Source of the DNA: Bdellovibrio sp.
GTDB taxonomy: Bacteria > Bdellovibrionota > Bdellovibrionia > Bdellovibrionales > Bdellovibrionaceae
Length of the DNA: 64,000 nt
Assembly (NCBI GenBank): GCA_036676395.1
Contig: JAKFCY010000002.1
Span: 2,592,001 to 2,656,000, forward strand
Reading direction: 5' to 3'
Each line of letters starts with the position of its first letter. Within the stretch, counting starts at the first letter, position 1. The notes below the pieces were generated by a model that saw only the letters and a list, made by a program, of their open reading frames with translations, was not told the origin of the DNA and did not search any database. Shown in pieces: positions 2,584-32,229 of the stretch. Position numbers and translations under genes: made by a program.

Positions 2584-2691
2584 TAACAGCACTCGAATCA
2601 TGAATTTTACTTATCGTATTATTACTTAAATAGAATTGAGTTTCGTTCTTAAGTTAGGTAACTATCCCCATCACTTTCGAGGGGAATTCTC

Positions 2692-5157
2692 ATGAAGTTA
2701 CAAATTACTTTATTATTCATTTTGGCCTTAGCTTTTTCTGCATGTTCGAAAAACTCAACTGAATCAGTTGTCGCAAATATCGACCAAGTTGAATTATCTC
2801 ATAAGCTGACAGCTCCTGTTGAACCAAGCCAATGGGCACAACACATGACGCCTTCTACGAAAGAAGTTAAGACGTCGGTTAAGTTTAATAAAAGCGCGAT
2901 CTTTGATCGTGATTTTTTATACGGCGCCGATCTACAGCATTCGACAATCTATGATGCTGATTCAATGTTATATGACCAAGTTTATTCTATGGGGCACGAA
3001 ATCGCGTTCTTTCGTAAAGTGGGCCAGTACTTACAACTTGTGGCTGAACAATCTTGGAAATTCGAATCAGATGTTAATAAACCAGAGCGTTTAATTAACG
3101 AATTTTTTATCTTAGACGAAACAGATACAACAATCACCGTTGATGTCAGCAACCCGTCTCCGGTATTACGCCAGATGTTCTGGGGTTCACAAACTGATCA
3201 AACTCGCACATCTTGGTTACGTTCAGTTCAGTTTGATCCAAACGGCAATTACCTTTTAATGGAATCTTCGATCGAAACTTTAAAAGGTGACATCGTTGAA
3301 CACATGGAAAGTTTATTTCCGCGCGAAAATTTAGTTTCTGAAAAAACAACGCCATTTTGGTTAACTGATACTGAAGCCTTAGCTAAGCGTTTTGAGTTCT
3401 TAGCTTGGTTTCCGGTATTTCGCCAAACGGATGCAGGCCGTGTAGCTGCTCCTGCAGCTTTCAAATTCGATATCACTAAAACTAAAACAGTAAAGTGGTA
3501 TGTGACTGCCAATGTGCCTGACGATATCCTGCGCGACGTACAAACTTCTGTTGAAGGCTGGAACCGCTACTTTCAAAAAATGTGGGGTAAAGACGGTTTA
3601 GTATTTGCCGGAAAACTTCCTGAACACGCAAAACTTGGTGATCCTCGTTACAACGTGATCGTTTGGGATAACGTACAGGATGGCGACGCCGCTTATGAAT
3701 CACAAGCTGTTGATCCATTAACAGGTATTCAATCACATTCGAATATATATATTCCGTTTTCTTGGTTAAAAACAGCCACTGAATACTGGACTGACGGTCA
3801 ATTCGCTAATCACGACGAAGACGCTGAAGCCAAAATCACAAAACAACAAAAGTGGTTATCTTCTAAGTCGTTTATGGGATCACCTTTACGTTTTGGTTGT
3901 TATCGCGATCTTTCAAAAATCGTTCTTAACGGTCAGCAAAAATCTAAAGAAGAATTACACATCTTAGCGCGCGATGTTTTAAAAGCCGTGATCATGCACG
4001 AAGTAGGTCACGCACTGGGTATGGGTCATAACTTTAAAGGTTCATTATACAATGAAGATGGTCAGTTCACTTCTAGTATTATGGATTACAACCATTACAA
4101 TTTAGAACGCCCTATCTTTGATAACGTTGATTCTGCCAATGGCCCGATCTTAGAATACGATCGCCAGTTTATTGATGCACTTTACAATAACGGTGAAACG
4201 TTAGAAGAAAGCCCCGTGCTTCCATCTTGTGACGATGCCGAAGCAGACACTACCGCAGGTGGTGTTGATCCAACGTGCAGCCGCTACGATGCAGGTTCTA
4301 ATCCGTACAACTGGATGTTAGAAACAATTCAGTTAATCGAAAAGCCTTCGTACACATTAGGTTACATGAAAAGTTTAACTGAGGCTTTAGCCGATGTTCA
4401 AACTTCACTGACTGCAACCGAAGAAGTAGCTACAAAAGAAGATTACGAAACTGTTCGTGATGACTTTTTTACCCGTGAATCGGCACTATTTGATTTCTAC
4501 GCTTTTGCCGGCGCTCACAGCTTACGTTATTTAACGACGATCAATTTAAAAACATTAAAAAACGTAGCTCCGGGTATTTTAGAAAACACGGCGTTCAACG
4601 AAGTTAATCTTCGTAACCAAGTGCTTTCAAGCCTAGAATACATCTACACTTTACAAGCTGTTCCTGCGGCACCGCTGGCGCAATTAGAAGCAAATGTATC
4701 TGCATTCACAAAATGGGTGCAAACAACGAAATACTTTGCGGCTCTTGATTTAAATGCTCAGGCTGTTTTAGTAAATGAACTGCAAGATAAAAATAAAGAA
4801 GTAATCACGCATGTTCAAACTGTGACATTCACAAAAGTTCGTCAGCGTATTGCTGCTAACTTAGCTCACGATGAAACAAATGCTTATTACTTCTCATCTG
4901 AAGCAAATTTAGATGTTGAGACTTACGTTGTAGAACTATTAAAGAAACTTGCGATCACTAAATCGCAAGGTGACTTTGTTAGATCAAACGACGAAAGAAA
5001 AGCAGCCATCGCAAGCTTCATGACTTTCCGTGCAGCTAACATCGCCGATGCCGCCTCAGCTGAAGAAATCTCGACAGTTTTAAAAGCAGATCTTAAAGCC
5101 GCAAAAAATTCTCAGGAGCGCACAACTCTTAGAGCGTTACTTGCGATGGTCTATTAA
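2692..5157 (+). CDS. Zinc-dependent metalloprotease lipoprotein (metzincin, DUF4953-like)
   Basis: Lipobox LAFSA-C, HEVGHALGMGHNF zinc motif, Met-turn SSIMDY, and GDPRYN motif. RBS GAGGGG upstream. Confidence 0.85.
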   Translation: MKLQITLLFILALAFSACSKNSTESVVANIDQVELSHKLTAPVEPSQWAQHMTPSTKEVKTSVKFNKSAIFDRDFLYGADLQHSTIYDADSMLYDQVYSMGHEIAFFRKVGQYLQLVAEQSWKFESDVNKPERLINEFFILDETDTTITVDVSNPSPVLRQMFWGSQTDQTRTSWLRSVQFDPNGNYLLMESSIETLKGDIVEHMESLFPRENLVSEKTTPFWLTDTEALAKRFEFLAWFPVFRQTDAGRVAAPAAFKFDITKTKTVKWYVTANVPDDILRDVQTSVEGWNRYFQKMWGKDGLVFAGKLPEHAKLGDPRYNVIVWDNVQDGDAAYESQAVDPLTGIQSHSNIYIPFSWLKTATEYWTDGQFANHDEDAEAKITKQQKWLSSKSFMGSPLRFGCYRDLSKIVLNGQQKSKEELHILARDVLKAVIMHEVGHALGMGHNFKGSLYNEDGQFTSSIMDYNHYNLERPIFDNVDSANGPILEYDRQFIDALYNNGETLEESPVLPSCDDAEADTTAGGVDPTCSRYDAGSNPYNWMLETIQLIEKPSYTLGYMKSLTEALADVQTSLTATEEVATKEDYETVRDDFFTRESALFDFYAFAGAHSLRYLTTINLKTLKNVAPGILENTAFNEVNLRNQVLSSLEYIYTLQAVPAAPLAQLEANVSAFTKWVQTTKYFAALDLNAQAVLVNELQDKNKEVITHVQTVTFTKVRQRIAANLAHDETNAYYFSSEANLDVETYVVELLKKLAITKSQGDFVRSNDERKAAIASFMTFRAANIADAASAEEISTVLKADLKAAKNSQERTTLRALLAMVY

Positions 5158-5818
5158 GATCATCTTTATCCCATAGACGCATTTCACGCGCTCTCTCTTT
5201 GAGAAAGCGCATTTGTCTAAAGTATTCCTGCATAATTGTTCGAAGCTCATGCCCGTGACCGCGGGCCCAGTCGCGCTGCATTTCGCACGCTATCGCCAAT
5301 GCCGTAACCGGAATTGCTCCGGCCTGAACCATACGTTGAATCGCCGCTTCGTGACTTTCTTGCGTGACCCCACCGATGGCATCAATCACGGGGTAAACTT
5401 CATAACCATCTTTAATCGCATCCAGAGTTGGGTAAGCCACGCACACTTCAGTCCACAGACCTGACATAATTATTTTTTTACGCCCTGTTTGCGCAATCGC
5501 ACTGACAAAATTTTCGTCTTCCCACGCATTTAAAGTGGTGCGGTCAATTTCGATCTGCGGAGGCAAAGCATCGATTAAATCTTTATGCGTACCCTGATTT
5601 ACACCAAGTTGTACACCGACAGTTGTTACCACTGTCGGAACATTAAAAGCTTTCGCGATCTTTCCCAGAGTGACTACATTCAGAAGTAACTCACTCGCTG
5701 TTTTTGAACCCACACCGCGAAATTGTTCGGGCTGGTAATCAATAAAAGCGATGACTGAATTTTCTGGTGTAATTAAATGATCTTTTTTCGCATTACGAAT
5801 AGATGCAAGCTGCGCCAT
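5129..5818 (-). CDS. Isochorismatase-family cysteine hydrolase (YcaC-like)
   Basis: FIDYQ, NAWED, GRKKII.GLWTEVCV.YP motifs. RBS GGAGGT. Overlaps the convergent gene by 29 bp. Confidence 0.9.
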   Translation of the reverse strand: MAQLASIRNAKKDHLITPENSVIAFIDYQPEQFRGVGSKTASELLLNVVTLGKIAKAFNVPTVVTTVGVQLGVNQGTHKDLIDALPPQIEIDRTTLNAWEDENFVSAIAQTGRKKIIMSGLWTEVCVAYPTLDAIKDGYEVYPVIDAIGGVTQESHEAAIQRMVQAGAIPVTALAIACEMQRDWARGHGHELRTIMQEYFRQMRFLKERAREMRLWDKDDLNRPSQVTL

Positions 5819-5883
5819 TCCTGACCTCCCAATAGATTCAGTGAGGCAAAACGACTCATAGTCGGCCTCTATCTTAGGGATTA

Positions 5884-5899
5884 TGCAAAGGCGCTGCCT
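5884..5899 (-). promoter_or_regulatory. Candidate sigma-54 promoter for the YcaC-like gene
   Basis: Minus strand AGGCAGCGCCTTTGCA has GG-N10-GC with TTGCA. Confidence 0.45.
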
Positions 5900-6711
5900 C
5901 AGTAAAGATCAAGAATGACATATTCAGGTATAGCGTTGATTCGCACAGGTAAAATGCTTGTACCAATTCCGCGACTCACGAAAAGCTTACCCATCGGAAA
6001 ATCAATCCAACCTTTGGCCCAACTTTTCGGGGCCGCACCTGGCGTAACTGGTGCGCCAAATCCTGGAATGAAAATCTGGCCACCGTGCATGTGACCGGCT
6101 AAAGCTAAACTATAATGATGTTTTATTTTTAATAGTGCCGCAGGATCATGCATGAAAACAAGTCTTGGTGTCTCTCCGTAAACTTTAGAAAATGATTTTT
6201 CTGTATCTGCGTGTTCAGTGAAATCATCACCGATTCCAATGAGCCAAAAAGTTTTTTCCTTATGTTTTAAAAAAACTGAATCATTTTCTAAAACACGCAG
6301 CCCATTTTCCTCTAGTACTTTGCGAATATTTTCGCCGTCGTTCCACCAATCATGATTACCAAGAGTTACATATGTACCTAGCGGCGAAGAAAGCTCTTTG
6401 AGATAAACGACTAACTGTTCGATATCCATTTTTTTGCCGCCTGGCACTCCGTTTATTACAAGATCACCGCCGATTAAAATAATATCCGGCTTTTGTTCAT
6501 TAATACGACGAACTAAATTTTTAATGTAATCTTTTGAAATATGCGGAGAACCTGCATGTAAATCAGAGAAAAAAGCTATTTTCAAAACGGGGCCTTGCCA
6601 CGAAAAATCCTGATCATTTTGAACTAACAATCTCGGCTCGATAAGCACGCCCCAGATTGCGAGAATAATGCTTATAAAAACTAATAAAACAGTGAGCCTT
6701 CTTAATTTCAT
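5899..6711 (-). CDS. Calcineurin-like metallophosphoesterase (YkuE-like)
   Basis: SDLH, GGD, LGNHD, GHMHGGQ, VSRGIG motifs and an N-terminal membrane anchor. Confidence 0.9.
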   Translation of the reverse strand: MKLRRLTVLLVFISIILAIWGVLIEPRLLVQNDQDFSWQGPVLKIAFFSDLHAGSPHISKDYIKNLVRRINEQKPDIILIGGDLVINGVPGGKKMDIEQLVVYLKELSSPLGTYVTLGNHDWWNDGENIRKVLEENGLRVLENDSVFLKHKEKTFWLIGIGDDFTEHADTEKSFSKVYGETPRLVFMHDPAALLKIKHHYSLALAGHMHGGQIFIPGFGAPVTPGAAPKSWAKGWIDFPMGKLFVSRGIGTSILPVRINAIPEYVILDLY

Positions 6712-7922
6712 TTATTTTTTGAAGCTTTAACTTCTTCCCATTCAGGAATATACATTTCGGCATCGATCGGTTTTACAATCTTTCCTGCGCTAGGATTTTT
6801 ATAAACCGAATCTACGCCGTCAAAACCGGTAAACGTGCGCTCTGCTTCAGAAACTGAAGTTTCAAATTTCGGGACGTAATAGGCTTTGCCGCCGCCATCC
6901 GGAATATCTACAGACAGATTCGGCATCGCAAGGCCCGATAAATGGCCCCATAATTCTTTTTGAATTTCTAACGAGTCATCAATTGATGTGCGTAAGTGGT
7001 CAGTACCGATCGAAGGATCGCACTGAAACATATAATAAGGCTTAGCCCGTAAAAATAATAGTCTGCGCGAAAGCGCTTGCACGATCGCTGGGTGATTGTT
7101 CACGCCGTTTAATAACACCATCTGATTCATCACAGGGATTCCGTGATCAACAAACATCTCTACAGCCTGAGTTGATTCTGCGGTTAATTCACGCGGGTGA
7201 TTAAAATGAGTCATTAAAAACACGGGTTTATGTTTTCGTAAAATTTTAACTAAGTTTTCTGTTATACGCATCGGAGCCACAACCGGCATACGTGTGCCGA
7301 TACGAATGATTTCGATATGTTCGATTTTACGTAAATCAGATAATACGCGTTCTAACTGCGAATCAGAAACTGTTAACGGATCGCCGCCTGATAAAATAAT
7401 TTCGCGAAGGCCTTTGGTGTTTCTGAAATACTCTAAAGCATTTTCGTATTCAGAGTTTTTGATAAAAGCCTGATCACTGCCCGTGAAATGTTTTCTGGTG
7501 CAGTAACGGCAATACACTGAACAAATATCGGTAATTAAAAATAAGGCGCGATCAGAATAACGGTGCACCACGCGGGCCACCGGATTATTTGAATTTTTTC
7601 TTTCGCCCAAAGGATCAAGCTGGGCTTGCACTTGCTCAGATAATTCTGCGGCATGTGGCATTAAGATTCTGCGAATCGGATCTTGCTCTACCGTTGGGTG
7701 CGCAAGGCTTGCGTAATAAGGTGTGGCACGAATATTAAAAACTTGTTTGGCATCTTTGGCTTCGTTTGAACGAAACGCGATCGATTCATTTTCAGAAAGC
7801 GTAAAGTGAGTTTGAAAATCAGTTAATGATTTCATCGACTGGCGCAGTTGCCAGTTCCAATCCATCCAATCAGATGGGTTGATATTTTCAGGTTTTGGGG
7901 CTGAATCAAACTTGATCTTCAC
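6708..7922 (-). CDS. KamA-family radical SAM protein (lysine 2,3-aminomutase-like)
   Basis: W.WQL, HRYSDRAL, CSVYCRYCTRK, LSGGDPL, RIGTRMPV, HFNHPREL, GGGK motifs. Confidence 0.9.
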   Translation of the reverse strand: MKIKFDSAPKPENINPSDWMDWNWQLRQSMKSLTDFQTHFTLSENESIAFRSNEAKDAKQVFNIRATPYYASLAHPTVEQDPIRRILMPHAAELSEQVQAQLDPLGERKNSNNPVARVVHRYSDRALFLITDICSVYCRYCTRKHFTGSDQAFIKNSEYENALEYFRNTKGLREIILSGGDPLTVSDSQLERVLSDLRKIEHIEIIRIGTRMPVVAPMRITENLVKILRKHKPVFLMTHFNHPRELTAESTQAVEMFVDHGIPVMNQMVLLNGVNNHPAIVQALSRRLLFLRAKPYYMFQCDPSIGTDHLRTSIDDSLEIQKELWGHLSGLAMPNLSVDIPDGGGKAYYVPKFETSVSEAERTFTGFDGVDSVYKNPSAGKIVKPIDAEMYIPEWEEVKASKNK

Positions 7923-18476: not shown

Positions 18477-19427
18477 TTATGACTTCAGTTCGACTACTTG
18501 AGTTTCGAAGGCGAAATCCCAAGTAGTCGTTTCTTTAGCGGGATGTTTTTCAAAGGCTGCGCCAGCTCTTTCTTTGATCTTCTGAATGTCCTGAAGACTA
18601 GCAGAAGGATCATAGTGAGCCATGTATACTTGTTTAATAGCAAAATTCCCGCAAAGATTAAAAGCTCTTTCAAAAGTTCCATGGCCCCAACCTTTTTTCT
18701 GGTTCATTTCGTCTTCTTCGTACTGCGCATCGATATACATTAAATCTAAATTTTCGTAAAGCCCTGCGTCTTTGCCTAAGTCTTCACGAGTTACACGTGT
18801 GGCTTCGGTATCGACTGCGTGCCCATAGGCTTTACCACCATGTTCGATACGAAAACCGTAACAAGGATCTGGATGATCAAGCAAGTACGGAGTCACTGCA
18901 AAGCCATTAATGTAGCGCTTTTCATGCGGAGAAAGTTTAATAAACTGAATGTTCGCTTTAAGATCTTCATAACCCACCGGAAAAATCGGTTTCTGAAAAA
19001 GATCGCGCACAATTTTTTCACACTCAGGCTGTACGCAATAATACTTAACTGTACAACCCGGAATAAAATGTGGAGCAAAGAAAGGTAACCCAAGAATATG
19101 ATCAAAATGAAAGTGAGTAATTAAAATATGATATTCTTTTTGCGCAAAACGATTTTTCGCCAACGTATCGCTAAGGTATTTGATGCCACTGCCACCATCG
19201 ATAATAATAGTTTGATCGTCGCCTTGAACTTCAACACAAGTTGTAGCAACACCGTAACCGCTGATATCAACAAGTCTTTTTTCAGAAAGAAATTTATCAA
19301 CTTCAACGGGTGTTTTATAACCTTTATCCAAAAACTCGCGCATCAAAAGAGCGAATTGCTCTTTTGCTTCAATTGGGCTCGAACTGCTCGGAAGCGATCC
19401 ACGAACTCCCCAAAATTTTACTTTCAT
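18477..19427 (-). CDS. MBL-fold metallo-hydrolase (phosphodiesterase/RNase Z-like)
   Basis: KFWGVRGS, IDGGSG, THFHFDHILGLPFF, DAQY, GWGH, HYDP motifs. Confidence 0.9.
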   Translation of the reverse strand: MKVKFWGVRGSLPSSSSPIEAKEQFALLMREFLDKGYKTPVEVDKFLSEKRLVDISGYGVATTCVEVQGDDQTIIIDGGSGIKYLSDTLAKNRFAQKEYHILITHFHFDHILGLPFFAPHFIPGCTVKYYCVQPECEKIVRDLFQKPIFPVGYEDLKANIQFIKLSPHEKRYINGFAVTPYLLDHPDPCYGFRIEHGGKAYGHAVDTEATRVTREDLGKDAGLYENLDLMYIDAQYEEDEMNQKKGWGHGTFERAFNLCGNFAIKQVYMAHYDPSASLQDIQKIKERAGAAFEKHPAKETTTWDFAFETQVVELKS

Positions 19428-19633
19428 GTGTTGAATACCACGATGTGTTTTCCTTATTTAACACTATTAGTCTATTTTCTGATCATAACTTCCGCAAACA
19501 TTTCTGGGTAAACCTAGACAAGATTTCGTATGTTTACGAAGACCAAAGTCGGTAACCTCGACCAAGGTATTTCGCAAGCTACTAAATATCTAAGTATTTA
19601 GCCATAATCAGATTTGTCGAAGGTGGTTATCGC

Positions 19634-21448
19634 ATGAAGTGGTTGAATCGTTGGTTCTCGTTTTCTTGGAAGAAGTTGGTGTTGGTTGTCTCGCTTGTAC
19701 CTTTGATGTGGTTTTTTCATGGTCTCGATTTCCCTAAAGTTGATATGTTTTCGAGAGATGTACTCCAATTTTTAAACGATAACTCGAATGTCGAAAAATC
19801 CATCGTCACGATCAATATGAATTTAAAAAACGAACAATTTAAACGTCCATTTGAATTCGAGTCTTTTAAAACTTTAGTTGATACTCTCCTGAAGCAAAAT
19901 CCAAAAAATTTAATACTATGCTTTTCTCCGAGAGAATTCACTGGTGATGATACTCACGAGGACATTCGCCAAAAAGTTCTCAATTATCTACTCCCGCTTA
20001 AAAATGTCTATCTATATTCCCAAAGTTCAAATGATAAACATGATCCCAACACAGACCGTATATTCGAAAAATTTCCAAGAATATTTTTATTAACAATGCC
20101 ATTTGATAATTCGGGCGGAAGAAAACGTCGACGGGCTATTGTTTGGTTTGAAACAGTGGGCATTGCTACTGAATTCGCAGAAATGCAGAAGTTAGGATTT
20201 CAAACTAAAAATCATACCGATTTTCCATATGGCTGGCATTATTGGAAAACGATTCAACCCTATATAAAAACTTTTAAACAAGATTCTTTTGGCTCGCATG
20301 ACGCTTATGAAGTTATAGATACAAATTTTAAAGATGTTAATGTCGAAGGAAAAACCGTAATTCTTGGCTCGATTGACGAATTTGCAATGCTTGGAACTGA
20401 ATCAATTTTTAATTTATACTCTAAAATTGGAACTCCTGGATATAAAGATTTTCCGCCTGCTGACTCGCTAGCCAACTATATGAATTTTTATATTCATGGT
20501 GATTACATAAAGCTAATTTCTAACTTTAACGATTTGATACTATTTGGTTTTGTATTAATAATCCTGATTTTCATCAATATTGAAACTAGAAAGAAATTAT
20601 ATATCCTGTTATCACTCATTCCGTTGATCGCAGTATGTACTCTAATCCTTTACATCGTGGATAGTTATTACATTAATTTCTCCCGTAGTATTACTGCGCT
20701 ATTTTTCATTCAGTATCTTGGCATTCCAATTATTATGTTTGCTATGTTTAAAGAACAAGAAACAAAGAAATTGCAAGAAATCAGCGATGCAAGGATAGAT
20801 GCCTTACTCACAGTTTCAGAAAAGGTTGCACATGATATTCGCTCACCACTTTCCGCAATAAATCTGGTAATGCACAAAGTGAATTTCGACGATCCAGAAT
20901 ATAAAGAAATCTTTGACAGCGCTGTTCAGCGAATAGACGAAACCGCGACCAAAATTCTTACTCGTTACAGAACAAAAACAGGCAGTGAGAATGAACCCGT
21001 CGAACAAATTGATCTTGCTGAAATTATATCTTCAATAACTAAAGAGAAAAAAATTCTAAATACAAAAGTTGAATTCGAATTAGTTATTAATTCAGAAACC
21101 ACAACAGCTTTAGGATTAAAATTAGATCTAGAACGCATTATCAGTAACATTTTAGATAATTCAATCTTCGCACTTCAAAGCATCTTAGAACCCAGAATTT
21201 TTATTTCAACAGATTCACATGACAACATGATTCGGGTAGGCATCACAGATAATGGCACAGGAATTCCCGATCAAATTTTGAAACTTTTAGGTACAACCCG
21301 CATTACAACGAAAGCAGACACCAACCAAGGTAACGGCATTGGAATTTTACATGCTAAGCGAGTTATCGAACGACTGAACGGTCGATTTGAAATCTCTTCG
21401 GCTGAACATGTCGGAACAACGATCAAAATCAGTTTACCAAAAGCCTAG
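19634..21448 (+). CDS. Sensor histidine kinase with a divergent CHASE2-like periplasmic domain and three TM helices
   Basis: H-box AHDIRSPL, N-box NILDNS, G1 DNGTG, G2 GNGIG. N-terminal TM, then a periplasmic domain ending in EGKTVILG (CHASE2-like), then three TMs. Confidence 0.85.
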   Translation: MKWLNRWFSFSWKKLVLVVSLVPLMWFFHGLDFPKVDMFSRDVLQFLNDNSNVEKSIVTINMNLKNEQFKRPFEFESFKTLVDTLLKQNPKNLILCFSPREFTGDDTHEDIRQKVLNYLLPLKNVYLYSQSSNDKHDPNTDRIFEKFPRIFLLTMPFDNSGGRKRRRAIVWFETVGIATEFAEMQKLGFQTKNHTDFPYGWHYWKTIQPYIKTFKQDSFGSHDAYEVIDTNFKDVNVEGKTVILGSIDEFAMLGTESIFNLYSKIGTPGYKDFPPADSLANYMNFYIHGDYIKLISNFNDLILFGFVLIILIFINIETRKKLYILLSLIPLIAVCTLILYIVDSYYINFSRSITALFFIQYLGIPIIMFAMFKEQETKKLQEISDARIDALLTVSEKVAHDIRSPLSAINLVMHKVNFDDPEYKEIFDSAVQRIDETATKILTRYRTKTGSENEPVEQIDLAEIISSITKEKKILNTKVEFELVINSETTTALGLKLDLERIISNILDNSIFALQSILEPRIFISTDSHDNMIRVGITDNGTGIPDQILKLLGTTRITTKADTNQGNGIGILHAKRVIERLNGRFEISSAEHVGTTIKISLPKA

Positions 21449-21478
21449 TACTAAAGTCCTAACGGTTTACATAAACTC

Positions 21479-21500
21479 AAGTAACTTCCGCAAGTTACTT
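21479..21500. promoter_or_regulatory. Perfect inverted repeat next to the rSAM promoter
   Basis: AAGTAACTT-CCGC-AAGTTACTT. Could be an operator or a weak terminator of the kinase gene. Confidence 0.5.
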
Positions 21501-21504
21501 TCAA

Positions 21505-21521
21505 TTGGCTCTAGTATTGCT
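21505..21521 (+). promoter_or_regulatory. Candidate sigma-54 promoter of the radical SAM/peptide operon
   Basis: TTGGCTCTAGTATTGCT has GG-N10-GC with TTGC, ending 33 nt before the ATG. Confidence 0.65.
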
Positions 21522-21554
21522 ATTCTAATTTAGATTGAATAACTGAGAGACAAA

Positions 21555-22889
21555 ATGAAACCAATAGAACTGCGCCGACATAATGAAATTATCGCATTTA
21601 GAGCTGAGGACGACTCCCTTGTAGCTCTGCATGGTTTTAATATGGAAGTCGCAGAAATTAGTGAGGAATCATTTGCTCAAATGACACCGATTTCAATCTC
21701 TACAGGTGAAATTCCTGATGTCAAACTTCCAGACAACCATGAAGAAAAGGAAGCATTCGACGCATTGAGAGAATGGAACGCAGAAGAAAATCCAAATGCT
21801 AAAAGTGGAAAATTAGAGTTCGGAATTCGCTCAATTAATTTAAATGTAAACCAAATTTGTAATTTAAAATGTGCCTATTGCGCTGCCGGCGGCGATGGAA
21901 CTTACGGCGAACCCATGAATAAAATCTCGATCGAAAAAACCCTACCGCAACTCAAATTTTTCTTAATGCAGCTAAAGCCCGGTCAGAAATTTCGCGTGAT
22001 TATTATCGGTGGTGAGCCCCTTTTATATCCAGAAGCTATAAAGGCTGTGCACGACTATTTAATGTCAGAAGCGCCAAGCCGCGGAATTATCCCAAGACTT
22101 AGCATTGTGACAAACGGAACACTTCTTAACGGTAAAACTCTCGAGTTAATCCGCTCATTAAAAATCGAAATCAAAATTAGTCTCGATGGCGCTAAAGAAA
22201 TAAATGATGTTGTTAGACCAAGTAAAAACAATTCTAGCTCAACAGACCAAACAGTAGCTGGGATCGCTGAGTTAGCAAAAGATCGCGGTAACGTAACTAC
22301 ATGGGGAATCTCAGCGATCAGCACTTCAAAAAATCCAGAAACACTTTTAGCGTATCGTTATTTAAGAAGCTTAAATCCTGATTGGTTAGAATTTCATTTC
22401 GATGTTGGTGAGAAGTCGCAAGAACTTCAAGACAAACATATTGAACAAATGAACCTGATTGCTGCTGAAGCCTGGAAAATTGGTGGCGAAAAAGAACTCA
22501 GAAAAATAGCTCAGTTTGATCAAATTTTTCATCTTTTAGATAGCCAGCTTCGCCTTGAAAACCACTGTGGTGCTGGAAAAACTTACTTAATGGTCGACGC
22601 CAAAAACAAGATGTATCCTTGTGTTTGGGAGGCTGGCGACAAGGAGCAAGTTGTTGGTCAAAATGAACAACTCGACCATGCCAAGCTATCTAACTATTCA
22701 AAATCTCTTATAGAACTTAATAATTGCCAAACCTGCTGGGCTAGACACTTTTGCGGTGGCGGTTGTATGTATATCAATAAGCTCAATAATGGCAGTAAGC
22801 ATGTAAAAGATAAAATGTTCTGTGAACGTACGAGAAGCTTGCTTTTGCCTATTATTTCGTATTATAAATTAGCTAGGTCTGCGGAATAA
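21555..22889 (+). CDS. Radical SAM/SPASM peptide maturase (thioether-forming CteB/QhpD-like) with a probable N-terminal RRE
   Basis: CNLKCAYC, GGEPLL, TNGTLL, ISLDG. SPASM motifs HCGAGKTYLMVD....YPC and CQTCWARHFCGGGC...C. About 90-aa N-terminal extension with a beta-beta-beta-alpha pattern. Confidence 0.9.
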   Translation: MKPIELRRHNEIIAFRAEDDSLVALHGFNMEVAEISEESFAQMTPISISTGEIPDVKLPDNHEEKEAFDALREWNAEENPNAKSGKLEFGIRSINLNVNQICNLKCAYCAAGGDGTYGEPMNKISIEKTLPQLKFFLMQLKPGQKFRVIIIGGEPLLYPEAIKAVHDYLMSEAPSRGIIPRLSIVTNGTLLNGKTLELIRSLKIEIKISLDGAKEINDVVRPSKNNSSSTDQTVAGIAELAKDRGNVTTWGISAISTSKNPETLLAYRYLRSLNPDWLEFHFDVGEKSQELQDKHIEQMNLIAAEAWKIGGEKELRKIAQFDQIFHLLDSQLRLENHCGAGKTYLMVDAKNKMYPCVWEAGDKEQVVGQNEQLDHAKLSNYSKSLIELNNCQTCWARHFCGGGCMYINKLNNGSKHVKDKMFCERTRSLLLPIISYYKLARSAE

Positions 22890-22906
22890 AGCCGCAGGGG
22901 GAATAT

Positions 22907-22990
22907 ATGAAAAAACATATCAAAAAAGTTAAAGCTCAAGAAGTTAGCGAAAAGCCGATTAAAGAACCGGGCTGCTCACCTATGAAATAG
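22907..22990 (+). CDS. Putative RiPP precursor peptide, 27 aa: MKKHIKKVKAQEVSEKPIKEPGCSPMK
   Basis: Below the track length cutoff. Strong RBS AGGGGGA ending at 22902, starts 17 nt after the rSAM stop and fills the gap to the next kinase gene. KHIK leader motif and one Cys. Confidence 0.75.
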   Translation: MKKHIKKVKAQEVSEKPIKEPGCSPMK

Positions 22991-23004
22991 CTTGTGATTT
23001 TCTC

Positions 23005-24867
23005 TTGGAAGCATCACAAAAACTTGAACTTAAGTATTTAATTCTACGTACAATTTTCGCAATCGCCGTCGGCGTCCTTATCTCAGCATTTAATTTAGAT
23101 TTTATCGAAGGCTACCTGGTTGATTTTCGTATCCAAGCAAAAGCTTTTCTTGGGTTAGCAAAACCAAAAAACCCACAAGTTGCGATCGTATTAATTAACT
23201 TCAAAACAGTTGAAAAATATCAACGCCAACCTAACTTTCCTGATCACATCAAGTTTCTCAATCAACTCTCTGGATTAAACCCGAAATTTATCGTTTATGA
23301 GTTCAGAACAAGCGATGAAGAATTTTTAGAAATCAGTGGAACCTACAAAGAAAAACAAGAATTTGCAGATCAAATTAAAAGTTTTTCGAATCTTCATTTC
23401 TCAACTCAAAATTTAACTATTAAAGGTGAAACAGAAGAGTTTCGCCTTAAAGCTCCTTTAGACGAAATTAAATTCTCATCTATGCCTTTTACTGCTGATG
23501 GAAAATCATTCGGTAAAGATGGAGTTTCACGTCGCCTAATGTATCAATATCAGGATCAAGCAATGGTCCAACCTCGGATCGCTGCCTTCTATAATCCAGA
23601 GATTCAGAATCCAGAAAAGATCAGAGGAAACTTTTATTATTTAGAGTCATATCAAACTTATATTGATTATCACCCCGTTGGCTCATTTCCGACATATGCC
23701 TTTGAAGATGTCGTCGATGGCAAAGTTCCTAAAGATGCTTTCGAAGGTAAAGTAGTTATTGTGGGTTCAGATCTAGGTAAAGACCCCGATGACTATGCTT
23801 CTACTCCATATAATCGCCATTTCAGTGGTATGACTAAGACCGAACTTCAAGCCAATCAGATTCAAACTCTCATAGATAACAGTGCCCCACTTAAACCACA
23901 TCGTGCTGTTAATATTGCTATCGTTATTTTAATTTCATTCTTAACTCTCTACGCTACTTTATCTCTTACCCCAGCACGCGGTCTTTTAATCTTAGGCGGT
24001 ACTTTATTTGGGCTAGGCGTAATTTCTATTTTAGCATTTAGCGTTTTCGGTATCTGGTTCGATCTTTCGCATCCATTTCTAGCAATCTTCCTCTGCTACT
24101 ACTTCTTCATCCCCTACCGTCTTATCCGAGAAAACCGCAAGAGCTGGGAATACTACCAAAAGCATAAACTACTCTCTGAAGTCGAAGAGCTTAAAACAAA
24201 CTTCATCTCAATGATGTCGCACGATCTAAAGACTCCTATCGCGCGTATTACCGGCATGACTGAAGTAATCTACAAAGACCCACAGCAACTATCGTCTCAC
24301 CAAAGAGAAGCGCTGGACACGATCAGACATAGCTCTGACGATCTATTAAAATTCATCAACGCTATCCTTCAGTACGGAAGCATCGAAAGCCAAGGCGTTC
24401 AGTTACACAAACAAGCTAAAGATCTTAATCAGCTTCTAGCCGACGTCGTGAAGAAACACCAATTTCTAGCTAATGTTAAAAAGATCAAGATCATCCAAGA
24501 GCTTGAGCCGATGTTTCCTACCCAAGTAGACCCAGAGCTTATTAAACAAGTGTTTTCGAACTTACTCGAAAATGCGATTAAGTACTCTCCTGAAGAATCT
24601 ACCGTCTGGGTGCGTAGCCGCGAAGGCGACGATACTATAATAGTAGAGTTTCAAGATCAGGGTATGGGGATTCCGCCATCTGATCTTCCGAATATTTTCA
24701 TGAAATTCTTTCGTACCCACACGGTTAAGACCACAACCATTAAAGGTTCTGGCTTAGGGCTTTATTTAGCCCAGTACTTCGTAGAATTGCATAAGGGTAA
24801 AATCACGGTCGATAGCTCGCCTGAACGAGGCTCTAAGTTCACCGTTGAGCTTCCATTAGACAAATAA
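23005..24867 (+). CDS. CHASE2-domain sensor histidine kinase
   Basis: DGVSRR, FEGKVVIVG, TPY, ELQANQIQTL (CHASE2), three TMs, H-box SHDLKTP, NLLENAIKYS, DQGMGI, GSGLGL. Confidence 0.92.
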   Translation: MEASQKLELKYLILRTIFAIAVGVLISAFNLDFIEGYLVDFRIQAKAFLGLAKPKNPQVAIVLINFKTVEKYQRQPNFPDHIKFLNQLSGLNPKFIVYEFRTSDEEFLEISGTYKEKQEFADQIKSFSNLHFSTQNLTIKGETEEFRLKAPLDEIKFSSMPFTADGKSFGKDGVSRRLMYQYQDQAMVQPRIAAFYNPEIQNPEKIRGNFYYLESYQTYIDYHPVGSFPTYAFEDVVDGKVPKDAFEGKVVIVGSDLGKDPDDYASTPYNRHFSGMTKTELQANQIQTLIDNSAPLKPHRAVNIAIVILISFLTLYATLSLTPARGLLILGGTLFGLGVISILAFSVFGIWFDLSHPFLAIFLCYYFFIPYRLIRENRKSWEYYQKHKLLSEVEELKTNFISMMSHDLKTPIARITGMTEVIYKDPQQLSSHQREALDTIRHSSDDLLKFINAILQYGSIESQGVQLHKQAKDLNQLLADVVKKHQFLANVKKIKIIQELEPMFPTQVDPELIKQVFSNLLENAIKYSPEESTVWVRSREGDDTIIVEFQDQGMGIPPSDLPNIFMKFFRTHTVKTTTIKGSGLGLYLAQYFVELHKGKITVDSSPERGSKFTVELPLDK

Positions 24868-25006
24868 ACACACTATAAACACAGCCCTAGAGCTTCTGCT
24901 CGCTAAGTAAACAATTCCTAGCTGGTGTCATTTTGCTTTTTTCGGTGTTCATTCGCTTAAAACTTGTGCTATACCCTACGACATATCGCTTACGGGGGAA
25001 TTATAT

Positions 25007-26578
25007 ATGTTAAAGGTTTTAGTTGTTGATGACGACCAAGCTCTACGCTTTTCGATCCGCTCTGCCTTAGAAGCTACTCGCAGATTCTCTATTGAAGAGG
25101 CTTTCGATGGCGTCAACGCTTTAGAAAAAGTTAAAGCCACTGATAGCACTAAACGTATCTATGACATCGTCATTCTTGATGTGGATATGCCGCGCATGAA
25201 CGGCTTAGCCGCACTTAAAGCGATTAAAGAATTCGATCCAGGCATTATCGTCTTAATGTTAACTGCACACGCGACGGTAGAAGCCGCTGTAGCAGCCGTT
25301 AAAGACGGAGCTTACAACTTTTTATCTAAACCAATCTCGGGTGATGATCTTACAGCCTTAATCGACAGAGCCATCAACGCTCACCGAATGATTTCGAACT
25401 TAGCCGTATCTTCACCGGTGTTTGTTGATGAAGGCCGTAAAATCATCGGTAACACTTCGCAAATGCAAAAAGTTTTTAACGTGATTCATAAGCTTGCTAA
25501 AGTTGATACCCCGGTATTAGTGCGCGGAGCTTCAGGAACAGGTAAAGAGCTTGTTGCTAAAGCCATCCACTTTAACAGCGCCCGTAAAGATGAAAAATTC
25601 GTGGCGATCAACTGTTCGGCGATTCCTGAGAATTTATTTGAATCTGAATTATTTGGTCACGAAAAAGGATCGTTTACTGGTGCTGACCAACGTAAAATCG
25701 GAAAGTTTCAATTTGCTGAAGGCGGAACTTTATTCTTAGATGAAGTTGGCGACATGCCACAGTTGATGCAAGTTAAAATCTTACGTGTATTACAAGAAAA
25801 ATTATTTACTCCGGTTGGATCAAATCGCGAGATTCCTACAAACGTAAGAATTATCGCAGCGACAAACCGTCCGTTAGAAAAAATGATGGAAGAAGGCCGC
25901 TTTCGTGAAGACTTATTCTATCGTTTAAATGTTGTACCTATTATTTTACCTCAGTTAAATGACCGCAAAGATGATTTAGATGTTTTAATTAATATCTTCA
26001 TCAAAAAATTTAACGTAGCTCACGGTAAAAAAATTAATGGCTTAACCAAAGATGCACTTGATGCAATGAAACGTTATAACTGGCCAGGAAATATCCGTGA
26101 ATTAGAGAACGTGATCGAACATTCTTTCGTTCTTGAATCAGGAAATCAGATCACTTTAGGAAGCTTACCAGAAGCGGTTTTGATGGCTGCTGGAATCAGT
26201 TTAATCGACCAAATGGATAAGATTCAGAGTCAATCAGAAACTATGAAGCAAATGAACGGCGCAACTGCTGTAAACATGGGCGTGACAGATTCTGACGACG
26301 ACGATGATTTATCTATTGACGCAGATTCTGAAATCGATGGCGATGATGAAATTGACGGCGAAGTGATCGGCCTAAGTGTTTCACCAAATGGCTTACTTGA
26401 TTTCAATGCACAAAAAGAAGAGTTCGAAAAACAGTTTATTATCAAGGCCTTGAAAACATTTAAAGGCAAAATTAATCAAACAGCATTGCACGCAAACATT
26501 CCGAAAAAGACTTTATTACGTAAAATTGAAAAGTACGGAATCGTGGCGAAAGAATATGCAAAAGTTGATCTTGATTAA
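25007..26578 (+). CDS. Sigma-54-dependent response regulator (REC-AAA+-Fis HTH, NtrC family)
   Basis: REC VVDDD and LDVDMP. GASGTGKE, GSFTGA, LFLDEVG, FREDLFYRL, WPGNIREL, C-terminal HTH. RBS GGGGGA. Confidence 0.95.
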   Translation: MLKVLVVDDDQALRFSIRSALEATRRFSIEEAFDGVNALEKVKATDSTKRIYDIVILDVDMPRMNGLAALKAIKEFDPGIIVLMLTAHATVEAAVAAVKDGAYNFLSKPISGDDLTALIDRAINAHRMISNLAVSSPVFVDEGRKIIGNTSQMQKVFNVIHKLAKVDTPVLVRGASGTGKELVAKAIHFNSARKDEKFVAINCSAIPENLFESELFGHEKGSFTGADQRKIGKFQFAEGGTLFLDEVGDMPQLMQVKILRVLQEKLFTPVGSNREIPTNVRIIAATNRPLEKMMEEGRFREDLFYRLNVVPIILPQLNDRKDDLDVLINIFIKKFNVAHGKKINGLTKDALDAMKRYNWPGNIRELENVIEHSFVLESGNQITLGSLPEAVLMAAGISLIDQMDKIQSQSETMKQMNGATAVNMGVTDSDDDDDLSIDADSEIDGDDEIDGEVIGLSVSPNGLLDFNAQKEEFEKQFIIKALKTFKGKINQTALHANIPKKTLLRKIEKYGIVAKEYAKVDLD

Positions 26579-26672: not shown

Positions 26673-27218
26673 ATGACAGTTAACCCGTTGCCTCCTCAAG
26701 CTTATACCAAAGATACTTTACAGAAAGCGTATTCGTGGCTGTTGTCACAATCGTCTTCTGTTAAAGAAATGGCGCAAGATCAAAATATGTTGGTCAGCCT
26801 TTATCTAAAAGCACAACGTAATGGGGATGCTGTTCTTGAAACTCCAAGCATTCAAAATTTCAAACAAGAATTAAAATCGTTAGCTAACATGATGGGTGAT
26901 TTTCAATCGCCGCAACAGTTAGCTACAGCGGCTTCGCACATGCACGCCCCAGCACATAAACATGCGCCAACAATCCATTCGCATGCTTCGCAAACCAATG
27001 CGACAGCTACCGCAGCAGCGGTTTCTACGTCGCATGTCACGACGACGACGGTTAGTCAGTCGCGTGTATCAACTGATATGAATGCAAATGGTTTTGATCA
27101 AAAAACTTTAGAGGCTATTCAGCAAGTGCGTGAAACTTTTAACTTAAGTTCTGATGCTGAAGCGATCCGCGCCTTAGTGGCGTTAGGAATTAAACAATTC
27201 CGTAAATCTGGTTTATAA
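26673..27218 (+). CDS. Hypothetical protein with a low-complexity linker
   Basis: 181-aa ORF with typical codon use and two short helical domains separated by an Ala/Thr/His-rich linker. Confidence 0.75.
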   Translation: MTVNPLPPQAYTKDTLQKAYSWLLSQSSSVKEMAQDQNMLVSLYLKAQRNGDAVLETPSIQNFKQELKSLANMMGDFQSPQQLATAASHMHAPAHKHAPTIHSHASQTNATATAAAVSTSHVTTTTVSQSRVSTDMNANGFDQKTLEAIQQVRETFNLSSDAEAIRALVALGIKQFRKSGL

Positions 27219-28985: not shown

Positions 28986-31733
28986 ATGCAAAATTCAAAT
29001 AGCCCCGACTACAAAAGCACGATCCGTTTACCGCAAACTGACTTTCCGATGAAAGGTGATTTACCAATTCGCGAACCTCAGATTATTGCTGGTTGGGAAA
29101 AAAATAATATTTATCAAAAGCTGCAGGAGAAAAACAAAAACGGCCCAGGTTTTACAATGCCTGATGGCCCTCCGTACGCGAATGGTTCAATCCATATCGG
29201 CCATGCTTTAAATAAATCTTTAAAAGATTTCGTGATTAAATATAAAAATATGCAAGGGTACTCTGCCCCGTTTATTCCTGGGTGGGATTGCCACGGTCTT
29301 CCGATTGAGCACAAAGTCATGAAAGACCTTGCCGATAAAAAGATAACAAAAACTGATCAAGAAATTCTAGCGCTGTGTCGTGAAGAAGCGACTAAATGGG
29401 TAAATCATCAACGCGAACAGTTCAAAAGATTAGGCGTGTTAGCTGATTGGGAGAACCCGTACCTAACAATGTCGAAACAATACGAAGCTGAAGAGGTTCG
29501 TGAATTCGCCCGCGCGTTCAAACGCGGCGTAATCTATCAAGGTGTAAAACCAGTTTACTGGAATTGGACTTTAAAAACTGCATTAGCTGATGCCGAGATC
29601 GAATACCACGATAAGGTTTCTCCTTCGATCTATGTAAAATTTAATATCACTGATGATAGAACTTTAGCAAAACTTGGAAATCCAAAAGGCACAACTTCAT
29701 ATGTGATCTGGACAACAACGCCATGGACATTGCCTGCTAACGTGGGTATCGCGCTCCATCCTGAATTTGATTACGGCGTATTCTCGTCTAACGGTGAAAA
29801 CCTAGTGATCGCAAAATCATTAAAAGAATTTTTTGAAAAAGACTCAGGTCTTTCTTTAACATTAGTTTCTACTGTAAAAGGTTCTGATTTAGATTTAACT
29901 GAAGCCCGTCACCCATTCTTAGATCGCAAATCCATTGTCGTCTTGGCTGATCACGTAACTGCTGATGCAGGTACTGGCGCGGTTCATACAGCTCCGGGCC
30001 ACGGTGCAGACGATTTCCGTGTTGGACAAAAATATAATTTACCAATTATCAATCCGGTGGCCGAAAACGGAACCTACACTGATGAATTTCCCGAAATGCA
30101 GGGCATGAATATCTTTAAAGCGAATCCTGTGATCATTGAAAAATTAAAAGCTTCAGGGCATTTAATTAAACACACTGATATCACGCACAGCTACCCGCAC
30201 TGCTGGAGATCGAAAACGCCATTAATCTTTAGAACGACGGCGCAATGGTTTATCGGTATCGATCAAGAAAACACCGAGATCAGAAAAAATACTTTAAAAG
30301 CGATGAATGATGTTCAGTTTTTTCCTGAATGGGGTAAAGCGCGTTTTGAAGCGATGATGCAGAATCGTCCCGACTGGTGTTTATCTCGTCAAAGAATCTG
30401 GGGCGTACCAATCCCGATTTATTACAACGAAGAAACTGGCAAACCCTTAGCTGACCTTGATGTTATGATGAAAGTCGCAGATGTTATTGAAGCCGGCGGT
30501 ATCGAAGCGTTTTATACTACCCCTCCAGAAAAAATCATCGGTAAGCCAGGTTATAAACTTGGGCGCGATATTTTAGATGTGTGGTTTGATTCGGGCGTAT
30601 GCCATGCGGCAGTCCAAGCAAAACGCGGATACAAAAATGTTCAGGCTGATATTTACTTAGAAGGTTCTGATCAACATCGCGGCTGGTTTAACACATCAAT
30701 GCTTTCAAGTATGTCGACAACAGGCAAGCCTCCGTTTAAAGCTTTAATCACCCACGGTTTTGTGAATGATTCTCAAGGTCGTAAGATGTCTAAGTCTTTA
30801 GGCAATGTTGTTGATCCAAATGAAATTACAAAACAATCAGGATCTGAGATCGTACGCCTTTGGGCATCGTCAGTAGATTACGGAACAGATGTCGGCTGTG
30901 GTAAGGAAGAATTAACTCGCGTAACTGAGACCTACCGTAAAATCAGAAACACGATGAAATTCTTATTAGGCGCGATCAATGATTTCGATGCCTCTAAAGA
31001 ACAAATCGAAGTTGCAAAAATGCCAATGATTGATCGTTGGATGATGCACCAGTTGAATAAATTAATCACTGAAGTAACTAAAGCTTACGAAGTTTACGAG
31101 TTTTACAAAGTTTACCAATTATTAAATCACTTCTTCACAGTGACTTTGTCTGCAACATACATGGATATCTTAAAAGACCGTATGTACACATGGAAAGCTG
31201 ACGGATTAGAACGTAAGTCGACGCAAACTGTTTACCATCACGTGACTACGTCAGTAATGCGTATGATGGCGCCGATTTTAACTTTCTTAGCTGAAGAAAG
31301 TTATGGTTATATGAAAAATAAAGCGCACGATTCCATCTTGTTAGAATCATTTCCGAAAGCTAACGCTTCTTGGAATGCTCCTGATTTAGATGTGACTTTC
31401 GATGATTTGTTAAGAATTCGCTCTGAAGCGCAAAAGAAATTAGAAGAACTACGCACAGCCAAAACAATCGGAGCAAGCTTAGAAGCTTCATTAAATGTTT
31501 CTGCTGATGGCGAAGCCTTTGCTGCGTTAGAAAAATTAAACTTGTCACATGCAAAATGTAACTTACGTGAATTTTTCATCGTGTCGAATGTAACTTTAGT
31601 TAAAGGACCTTTATCTGTAACAGCTGTTAAAGCTGATGGAGAGAAATGTCTTCGTTGTTGGGTGTACGACACTTTATCAACAGCAGCAAACACACAAGGC
31701 TTATGCCCTAAATGTGTTGAGGCCTTAGCGTAA
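28986..31733 (+). CDS. ileS: Isoleucine--tRNA ligase
   Basis: DGPPYANG.IHIGH, GWDCHGLPIE, WTTTPWT, KMSKS, C-terminal C.RCW...C..C zinc finger. Confidence 0.98.
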   Translation: MQNSNSPDYKSTIRLPQTDFPMKGDLPIREPQIIAGWEKNNIYQKLQEKNKNGPGFTMPDGPPYANGSIHIGHALNKSLKDFVIKYKNMQGYSAPFIPGWDCHGLPIEHKVMKDLADKKITKTDQEILALCREEATKWVNHQREQFKRLGVLADWENPYLTMSKQYEAEEVREFARAFKRGVIYQGVKPVYWNWTLKTALADAEIEYHDKVSPSIYVKFNITDDRTLAKLGNPKGTTSYVIWTTTPWTLPANVGIALHPEFDYGVFSSNGENLVIAKSLKEFFEKDSGLSLTLVSTVKGSDLDLTEARHPFLDRKSIVVLADHVTADAGTGAVHTAPGHGADDFRVGQKYNLPIINPVAENGTYTDEFPEMQGMNIFKANPVIIEKLKASGHLIKHTDITHSYPHCWRSKTPLIFRTTAQWFIGIDQENTEIRKNTLKAMNDVQFFPEWGKARFEAMMQNRPDWCLSRQRIWGVPIPIYYNEETGKPLADLDVMMKVADVIEAGGIEAFYTTPPEKIIGKPGYKLGRDILDVWFDSGVCHAAVQAKRGYKNVQADIYLEGSDQHRGWFNTSMLSSMSTTGKPPFKALITHGFVNDSQGRKMSKSLGNVVDPNEITKQSGSEIVRLWASSVDYGTDVGCGKEELTRVTETYRKIRNTMKFLLGAINDFDASKEQIEVAKMPMIDRWMMHQLNKLITEVTKAYEVYEFYKVYQLLNHFFTVTLSATYMDILKDRMYTWKADGLERKSTQTVYHHVTTSVMRMMAPILTFLAEESYGYMKNKAHDSILLESFPKANASWNAPDLDVTFDDLLRIRSEAQKKLEELRTAKTIGASLEASLNVSADGEAFAALEKLNLSHAKCNLREFFIVSNVTLVKGPLSVTAVKADGEKCLRCWVYDTLSTAANTQGLCPKCVEALA

Positions 31734-31734
31734 T

Positions 31735-32229
31735 ATGCGCCAAAAGCTAATTTACCTAATGACGATTTCAAGTTTAGTGATTGCTGCTGACCAGCTCACT
31801 AAACTTTTAGTGCACACAAAGTTTCAGTTACATGAAAGCCGTGTTGTGATTGAAAATTATTTTAATATCACTTACGTCAGAAACTTTGGCGCAGCTTTTG
31901 GAATTTTAGCGCAAACACCCGCGGTTTTTCGCGAAGTGTTTTTCTTGTCGATGCCGCCACTAGCCTGTTCGCTGATTTTATACATCATCTGGGGTTTGAA
32001 AGAAAAACAGACATCACAAATGATCGCGCTATCTTTTATTTTTGGCGGAGCCATTGGTAATTATTTAGATCGCATTCAGTACCGCTATGTGGTCGATTTT
32101 ATTGATTTTCATTTTTATAACCGCCAAACTTGGCCTGCATTCAATATCGCTGATATGGCGATTGTTTGTGGTGTCGGTGCTCTGGTTTATTTGATTATGA
32201 CTGAAAAAGAAACGAAACCTGTAGCGTGA
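31735..32229 (+). CDS. lspA: Lipoprotein signal peptidase II
   Basis: DQLTK, N.GAAFG, GAIGNYLDR, VVDFI, PAFNIAD. Follows ileS. Confidence 0.95.
   Translation: MRQKLIYLMTISSLVIAADQLTKLLVHTKFQLHESRVVIENYFNITYVRNFGAAFGILAQTPAVFREVFFLSMPPLACSLILYIIWGLKEKQTSQMIALSFIFGGAIGNYLDRIQYRYVVDFIDFHFYNRQTWPAFNIADMAIVCGVGALVYLIMTEKETKPVA

Follow-up and report, generated by a model that had tools for sequence, protein, structure and literature searches.

What holds a peptide-modifying enzyme, a minute gene and a sensor kinase side by side in a predatory bacterium? This question is raised by a locus of an uncultured member of Bdellovibrionota, Bdellovibrio sp. (contig JAKFCY010000002.1, forward-strand positions 2,592,001 to 2,656,000; this whole stretch of 64,000 nucleotides is hereafter called the window, and positions are counted from its first letter). 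Labelled relatives of the proteins of the source genome come from Pseudobdellovibrio and Bdellovibrio sp. qaytius. Between positions 19634 and 26578, five open reading frames (ORFs), all on the + strand, encode in this order a membrane histidine kinase (HK1), a radical S-adenosylmethionine (SAM) enzyme of the SPASM type (rSAM), a peptide of 27 residues, a second histidine kinase with a CHASE2 sensor domain (HK2) and an activator of the NtrC family. These are the five co-oriented genes listed in a preliminary description of this DNA, and each was recovered at its place in the ORF list. Modified-peptide pheromones read by a dedicated sensor kinase are textbook knowledge for Gram-positive bacteria, and CHASE2 is, to our knowledge, a widespread sensor domain without an established ligand. 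By comparing strains, we found that maturase, peptide and sensor domain form the unit which is inherited and exchanged at this locus; kinase core and regulator are generic.

The window was compared with two other genomes, named G018 and G036. Along the alignment with G018, sliding DNA identity is approximately 93% in the flanks. It is 50-57% for the HK1 sensor, 60-82% for rSAM, 56% at the peptide gene and 62-73% for the HK2 sensor, and returns to 93% at about position 24100. The diverged segment (19600-24100, on neither strand in particular) comprises HK1, rSAM, the peptide and the sensor part of HK2, and behaves as an allelic, pherotype-like block. At the protein level, the neighbouring penicillin-binding protein (PBP), the activator and the kinase core of HK2 are respectively 97%, 99% and 98% identical between the window and G018; rSAM is 72% and the HK2 sensor 65% identical, and the core of the peptide differs. 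Synonymous divergence (dS) amounts to 0.23-0.33 in the flanks, as compared to values from 0.75 up to saturation inside the block, including in the kinase core of HK1, which is conserved as a protein. Since dS is high throughout the block, and even in this conserved core, the block is an old allele and did not arise by a recent spurt of changes. G018 carries an extra gene (L022:11460-12353) that is absent from the window and encodes a protein of 297 amino acids (aa) with a signal-peptide-like start; this gene borders the variable block on the left, between the genes for a metallo-β-lactamase (MBL)-fold hydrolase and HK1.

With G036, the flanks of the window are more distant and the module is 94% identical, dS being 0.5-0.6 throughout except in the HK2 kinase core, where it reaches 1.05. 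In the tree of the module proteins, the window joins G036, and a clade uniting it with G018 is rejected (p value of the approximately unbiased test, p-AU, 1.6e-43). In the DNA tree of ntrC, the window joins G018 with a support of 93, and it is the grouping with G036 that is rejected (p-AU 0.008). Synonymous divergence and trees together show that alleles have been exchanged. Such variability is a property of this cassette and not of CHASE2 sensors generally, since two other CHASE2 proteins of the genome, taken as a control, are conserved, with identities of 99% and 98% to their G018 counterparts and of 94% and 91% to those of G036.

The same pattern recurs across strains. When near-identical strains are compared, identity is 95-99% for the flanks, the activator and the kinase core of HK2, 56-72% for rSAM and 43-72% for the HK2 sensor. 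Twenty-eight HK2 representatives, picked by kinase-core similarity alone, have a median pairwise core identity of 0.91, and their sensors form 18 clusters at 80% identity. Nine HK2 pairs were chosen whose sensors diverge over a kinase core at least 94% identical. Each of them has its best change point at residue 350-361, which corresponds to the end of the last membrane helix, with 28-58% of mismatches before it and 0-4% after it.

The maturase and the peptide follow the sensor side of this breakpoint. Once the kinase core is allowed for, rSAM identity tracks sensor identity with a partial correlation of 0.50, a value reached in none of 2000 permutations (39 inferred pairs). Among the 68 pairs with a kinase core at least 0.90 identical, rSAM identity correlates with that of the sensor (r = 0.57), and its correlation with the kinase core is -0.12. 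Peptide-core identity likewise tracks the sensor, with a partial correlation of 0.60 that none of 2000 permutations reached (29 loci); the corresponding value against the kinase core is -0.23.

The cassette in which this block is embedded is of wide occurrence within one bacterial order. The rSAM gene (21555-22889, + strand) was detected in 33 of 36 same-genus genomes, the three genomes without it being 64-89% complete. In a phylum-wide sample of 201 genomes, 25 contained it at E <= 1e-60; it was present in all 20 genomes of the window's family, in 4 of 16 genomes from other families of the order, and in none of the 164 from the other families sampled. Within one order of Bdellovibrionota, to which the cassette is limited in this sample, the genes keep the arrangement rSAM-peptide-HK2-activator. 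HK2 lies 3' of the peptide in 19/19 and 13/13 loci where the contig allows it to be seen, and the activator lies 3' of HK2 in 18/18 and 12/13 loci, being in the thirteenth divergently upstream and still adjacent. In that locus, L076 (genome G250, 2154-7323), the activator gene precedes rSAM instead of coming after the kinase, and the four genes have stayed together through an inversion-like rearrangement. The arrangement that the preliminary description had pictured around rSAM, with a peptide ORF downstream, HK2 and the activator, is kept across families. A scan of metagenomes, in which kinase-core identity did not exceed 81%, gave further peptides and no close-strain pairs.

The gene of the precursor peptide (22907-22990, + strand, 27 codons, one of them for Cys) is preceded by a G-rich ribosome-binding site; the gaps that separate it from its neighbours are 17 nt on the side of the rSAM stop codon and 14 nt on the side of HK2. 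A homologous short ORF was found 3' of rSAM in 20 of 20 loci (the window's own included), in 19 of 20 loci of a second set, where the missing one is at a contig edge, in 13 of 13 loci of a further set, and in 14 of 16 metagenome loci in a motif-filtered search. All share one design, a conserved basic N-terminal leader, a linker of variable length and, close to the C-terminus, the single Cys of a Cys-x-Pro motif. In an alignment of 26 rows, the Cys and the Pro two positions on are invariant, and two residues of the basic leader, the motif first written as KHIK, are nearly so. Conserved residues are encoded by mixed synonymous codons (for instance Cys by 11 TGT and 15 TGC, His by 11 CAC and 12 CAT), which indicates that selection acts on the protein sequence of the peptide. 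Conservation of the residues and mixing of the codons exclude a chance ORF, and the tiny one-Cys ORF noticed at first proves to be a real gene, which follows rSAM wherever the contig reaches and keeps its leader and its Cys. We infer that the peptide is very likely the substrate of rSAM. Searching the genome for a second precursor copy returned the known gene and two chance-level matches only. In one metagenome locus (L055:641-910), the kinase is preceded by a tandem pair of precursor genes of the design described above, and in two more distant families (L033; L077, L078 and L079) the Pro comes immediately after the Cys and is often followed by Glu.

HK2 (23005-24867, + strand) has the domains of a CHASE2 sensor histidine kinase, with Pfam scores of 76 bits for CHASE2 (cut-off 26.3), 58 for HisKA and 101 for HATPase_c. 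Its architecture is that of CHASE2 kinases: the sensor domain lies between an N-terminal transmembrane helix and a transmembrane bundle, and HisKA and HATPase_c come after. The variable sensor and transmembrane part extends from residue 1 to about 355 (23005 to ~24070, + strand) and is followed by the conserved juxtamembrane, HisKA and ATPase part. In the AlphaFold2 (AF2) model of residues 1-366 (pLDDT 90), transmembrane helices and an alpha/beta domain are visible. Searched as a whole against the PDB with Foldseek, without a separate query for its periplasmic domain, this sensor model matched nothing below E 0.2, and a wide VIA structure search matched the helical membrane part alone (Z at most 8).

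HK1 (19634-21448, + strand, 604 aa) combines a sensor and transmembrane region (residues ~1-375), with one N-terminal hydrophobic stretch and several later ones, and a kinase core (376-604). Pfam recognises HATPase_c only, and the window's protein stays under the CHASE2 cut-off. Its sensor nevertheless aligns to the CHASE2 domain of HK2 (E 3e-7), an orthologue passes the Pfam model (39 bits vs 26.3), and a precomputed CHASE2 match is present in 22 of 56 HK1 homologues, so that HK1 can be taken as a divergent CHASE2-type kinase. Of the two CHASE2-type kinases announced in the preliminary description, HK2 is thus one by Pfam, and HK1 is one only as a divergent relative. As for its membership in the cassette, also proposed at first, HK1 adjoins rSAM in the window and in just 4 of 34 related loci; it is excluded as a core part, and we consider it accessory. 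HK1 variants have cores 87-94% identical and sensors 35-49% identical.

The activator (25007-26578, + strand) contains receiver, AAA+ and HTH_8 domains, as expected for an NtrC-family response regulator and sigma-54 enhancer-binding protein. All three Pfam models are above cut-off (Response_reg 96.7, Sigma54_activat 241.3, HTH_8 26.3 bits), in agreement with its first assignment to this family. It is not an equivalog of NtrC itself (TIGR01818, 413 vs 558.6).

A sigma-54-type promoter had been noticed directly before the maturase gene. The -24/-12 motif TGGC-N7-TTGCT is indeed present at 21506-21521 (+ strand), 34 nt before the rSAM start. We regarded as a predicted sigma-54 promoter a pair of GG and GC elements ten bases apart (of the TGGCAC-N5-TTGCW type), located upstream of a gene in a genome that encodes RpoN; the motif is so placed, and rpoN was found in the source genome with a score of 446 bits. 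One match is not significant by itself, because the 64-kb window holds two where 0.86 are expected, and the weight comes from the conserved position. With the looser pattern TGG-N9-TGC, 15 of 22 loci and 9 of 13 further ones, 24 of 35 altogether, have the motif upstream of the rSAM start, other families included; the full TGGC-N7-TTGCT is present in 13 of the 15 and in 5 of the 9. The distance to the rSAM start is 20-76 nt in most loci, with one motif at -117. The second exact match of the window (31508-31523, + strand) lies inside the 3' end of the IleRS gene, ~210 nt before an ORF at 31735-32229. Between the HK1 stop codon and the promoter motif, an 8-4-8 inverted repeat can be read in the sequence (21480-21499, + strand). 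It is kept in G018 with one change and is not conserved in loci without HK1, and it could be a terminator of HK1 or a protein site.

What could such a cassette be for? The explanation that we favour, giving it slightly better than an even chance, is that it produces a self-made, modified peptide signal that is read by the CHASE2 domain, with feedback through sigma-54. We favour it because maturase, peptide and sensor are swapped as a unit and because the anatomy is the same as that of the ComQXPA system described below. The N-terminal domain of rSAM would bind the conserved N-terminal leader of the 27-aa precursor, and the enzyme would modify the single Cys, most likely into a small thioether ring as in ranthipeptides or sactipeptides. 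The modified peptide would leave the cytoplasm by machinery encoded elsewhere, and the periplasmic CHASE2 domain of HK2, encoded immediately downstream of the precursor, would sense it, HK1 serving as a second receptor where it is present. HK2 would control the adjacent NtrC-type activator, which with sigma-54 would drive the promoter before the rSAM-peptide-kinase unit, resulting in positive feedback. As the maturase, peptide and sensor alleles swap as one block, strains would then fall into signalling groups similar to the pherotypes of ComQXPA and agr. The block-wise co-variation supports, without proving it, the suggestion of the preliminary description that the modified peptide is the ligand of the kinase. 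As to the more specific proposal, that Bdellovibrio-type predators use a radical-SAM-modified one-Cys peptide as a strain-specific pheromone, read by a periplasmic CHASE2 domain, we hold it tentatively and place it somewhat below an even chance.

Several observations weigh against a self-made signal, or weaken the arguments in its favour. The correlations between rSAM, peptide and sensor indicate joint inheritance, not binding, because linkage and block-wise recombination alone would yield them; the peptide gene sits between the rSAM gene and the sensor-coding DNA, and is thus physically linked to both. For the correlation that involves rSAM, moreover, the 39 rSAM-HK2 protein pairs were matched by inference, from longest contigs of the same length. 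The fixed breakpoint could be no more than the place where DNA becomes similar enough for recombination. In a tree of the kinase-core and activator proteins, the window, G018 and G036 are not separated (p-AU 0.295), so that the tree conflict among the three depends on the ntrC DNA tree and on dS. The sensors of the window and G036 are 94% identical, but one of the two peptides has four additional residues before the Cys, and 2 of the 4 residues after it are not the same; pairing of near-identical sensors with different peptide cores disfavours a strict, residue-by-residue lock and key. On the regulatory side, 11 of the 35 loci are without the sigma-54 motif at the expected place, and a 7-mer census of 14 upstream regions returned A/T-rich words only, with no shared binding site for the activator upstream of the promoter. 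Finally, neither an exporter nor a leader peptidase is encoded in the cassette or among its neighbours, which are the genes for PBP, the MBL-fold hydrolase, a 181-aa protein and IleRS; this had been foreseen as a caveat at the outset. Genome-wide, a single weak C39-type match was found, far from the cassette.

Part of these observations would be equally well explained if the peptide were the output of the circuit. The CHASE2 kinase would sense some other variable cue from outside, such as the surface of a prey or a competitor, and the activator would turn on the rSAM-peptide pair, whose product would serve as an effector, be it in predation, in kin discrimination or as an antimicrobial; an arms race and linkage would then make sensor and product co-vary. 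Gene order and sigma-54 motif suit regulated production just as well, linkage accounts for the correlations, the peptide core differs under 94% identical sensors, and an exporter dedicated to a signal is missing from the locus. HK1 sensors also vary even more than those of HK2 relative to their cores, as might be expected of an arms-race receptor. However, no immunity gene, transporter or lytic partner lies beside the pair in any of the 34 loci, the product would be very small, with two invariant core residues only, and no such variation is seen in the other CHASE2 sensors of these genomes. In addition, the variable block stops exactly at the end of the sensor in 9 of 9 pairs, as would be the case if the sensor read the neighbouring peptide. 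We therefore find an output role, the chief alternative, doubtful, though by no means negligible, and continue to prefer a self-made signal read by HK2.

A second alternative bears on the enzymatic step alone, and fits either role of the peptide. The rSAM protein (444 aa, with an N-terminal domain of ~90 residues) is a radical SAM/SPASM peptide maturase resembling CteB and PapB. It scores 57 bits with the Pfam Radical_SAM model (cut-off 29.5), and the cysteines of its CX3CX2C motif (C102, C106 and C109) are invariant in 53 homologues, as are seven SPASM cysteines (C338, C356, C391, C394, C400, C404 and C423). The C-terminal region aligns to the SPASM domain of CteB, and no rSAM match to the Pfam SPASM model itself is listed at E 0.01. 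The best NCBIfam model is PapB (NF047865, 158 vs a cut-off of 340), followed by the nif11-peptide maturase (TIGR04064, 150.9 vs 518.7), and the SCIFF maturase (TIGR03974, 120.6 vs 425); QhpD scores 105 bits and the anaerobic sulfatase-maturating enzyme (anSME; TIGR03942) 79 bits vs 349. Every curated cut-off is missed, and the protein belongs to no curated NCBIfam family.

The nearest solved protein by sequence is CteB (5wgg, E 1.6e-26, in a PDB sequence search). CteB is also the nearest solved fold: with the AF2 model of rSAM (pLDDT 93), Foldseek returned 5why at a template-modelling (TM) score of 0.76 over ~460 columns, and because of this span the match takes in the N-terminal domain. That domain, a candidate leader-binding (RRE-like) domain covered by the whole-chain query, is modelled with confidence as beta-rich at residues 6-46, with a helix at 62-76. 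A thioether at the single Cys of the peptide is our favoured guess for the chemistry, since CteB/PapB-type enzymes are the nearest relatives by sequence and by fold.

Instead of being tied into a thioether, the Cys might be oxidised to a formylglycine-type aldehyde, as anSMEs do, or undergo another single-residue change. Sulfatases carry the motif Cys/Ser-x-Pro/Ala-x-Arg, and this is what the Cys-x-Pro of the peptide recalls, so that a formylglycine-type reaction has to be envisaged: Cys and Pro are the sole invariant residues of the core (26 of 26 rows). The peptide offers no conserved acceptor residue; most frequent are Gly at -3 (22 of 29 rows) and, at +3, Thr or Ser (17 of 29). The SPASM fold of anSME (4k37) is also a good match to the rSAM model, with TM scores of 0.61-0.66 in Foldseek. 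On the other hand, thioether formers rank before anSME among the NCBIfam models (PapB, SCIFF maturase and QhpD), the sulfatase motif's Arg finds no conserved counterpart in the peptides, Gly occupying position +4 in 14 of 29 rows, and in the two more distant families no residue separates the Pro from the preceding Cys. Moreover, anSMEs lack the N-terminal domain that rSAM shares with CteB, and act on a sulfatase rather than on a small dedicated peptide. We consider this chemistry unlikely, and keep the thioether as the favoured product. A single-Cys, Cys-x-Pro precursor belongs to no curated family of ribosomally synthesised and post-translationally modified peptides.

That the rSAM-peptide and kinase-activator pairs are functionally unrelated, and adjacent only by order-wide synteny, is highly improbable: PBP, the MBL-fold hydrolase, the 181-aa protein and IleRS are likewise syntenic in related loci and the cassette is limited to one order in the sample, but gaps of just 17 and 14 nt, an activator that is still adjacent after the rearrangement in L076, and an allelic block in which rSAM and peptide go together with the sensor-coding half of the kinase gene, to the exclusion of the syntenic flanks, all argue for a functional link.

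The gene of the 181-aa protein (26673-27218, + strand) is directly 3' of the activator in most related loci, other families included, with 30-56% identity; the protein belongs to no Pfam or NCBIfam family, its middle part is rich in His, Ala and Thr, and it is 98% identical in G018, outside the variable block. The MBL-fold hydrolase gene (18477-19427, - strand) is divergent, and lies upstream of the cassette in most same-genus loci. Its product, 96% identical in G018 and also outside the variable block, has weak matches to RNase Z and lactonase-type models, all below cut-off.

Among known systems, the closest in anatomy is ComQXPA of Bacillus subtilis. It consists of four adjacent, co-oriented genes for an enzyme, a small precursor, a membrane histidine kinase and a response regulator (PMC4008528), of which comQ, comX and the 5' end of comP show little conservation and define pherotypes (PMC6334282). 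The present cassette, a putative signalling system, has an enzyme, a precursor, a sensor kinase and a regulator in the same order within one locus, and here too it is enzyme, peptide and kinase sensor that are polymorphic, with a conserved kinase core and regulator. No protein is homologous between the two. The enzyme is a radical SAM/SPASM protein instead of the isoprenyl transferase ComQ, the sensor is a periplasmic CHASE2 domain instead of a multi-pass one, the regulator is a sigma-54 enhancer-binding protein, and the host is a Gram-negative predator. Pfam and NCBIfam scans gave radical SAM, CHASE2 and NtrC-type families only, with no homology to ComQ and ComP or to AgrB and AgrC.

The agr system of staphylococci similarly comprises a maturase, a precursor, a sensor kinase and a regulator (AgrB, AgrD, AgrC and AgrA), with autoinduction and a hypervariable maturase-peptide-sensor region. 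There, a membrane peptidase forms a thiolactone; protein families and promoter type differ, and the sequences are unrelated. In sequence and in fold, rSAM comes closest to the enzymes of the SCIFF/ranthipeptide systems (CteA/CteB and PapA/PapB), which also have a short Cys-containing precursor beside the maturase. The present precursor has one Cys instead of several and other leader and core motifs, and a dedicated CHASE2 kinase and sigma-54 activator accompany it; allelic diversification is not described for those systems. The nearest published idea is a connection of SCIFF-derived ranthipeptides with clostridial quorum sensing (Chen et al. 2020, as summarised in PMC8102284). Within the portions of the literature accessible to us, we found no paper describing this cassette, nor a pheromone system of Gram-negative bacteria based on a radical-SAM peptide and a CHASE2 kinase.

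The cassette provides a genetically linked candidate ligand for CHASE2, together with many natural allele pairs for the study of specificity. If our proposal is true, a first class of ligands would be assigned to this domain, and a pherotype system of the ComQXPA kind would exist in Gram-negative bacteria. Predators would then tell kin from non-kin, or count themselves, by means of a sigma-54 feedback loop, a form of strain-level communication. What is new here is the allelic, pherotype-like behaviour of the rSAM-peptide-sensor block, with its fixed switch point at the end of the sensor.

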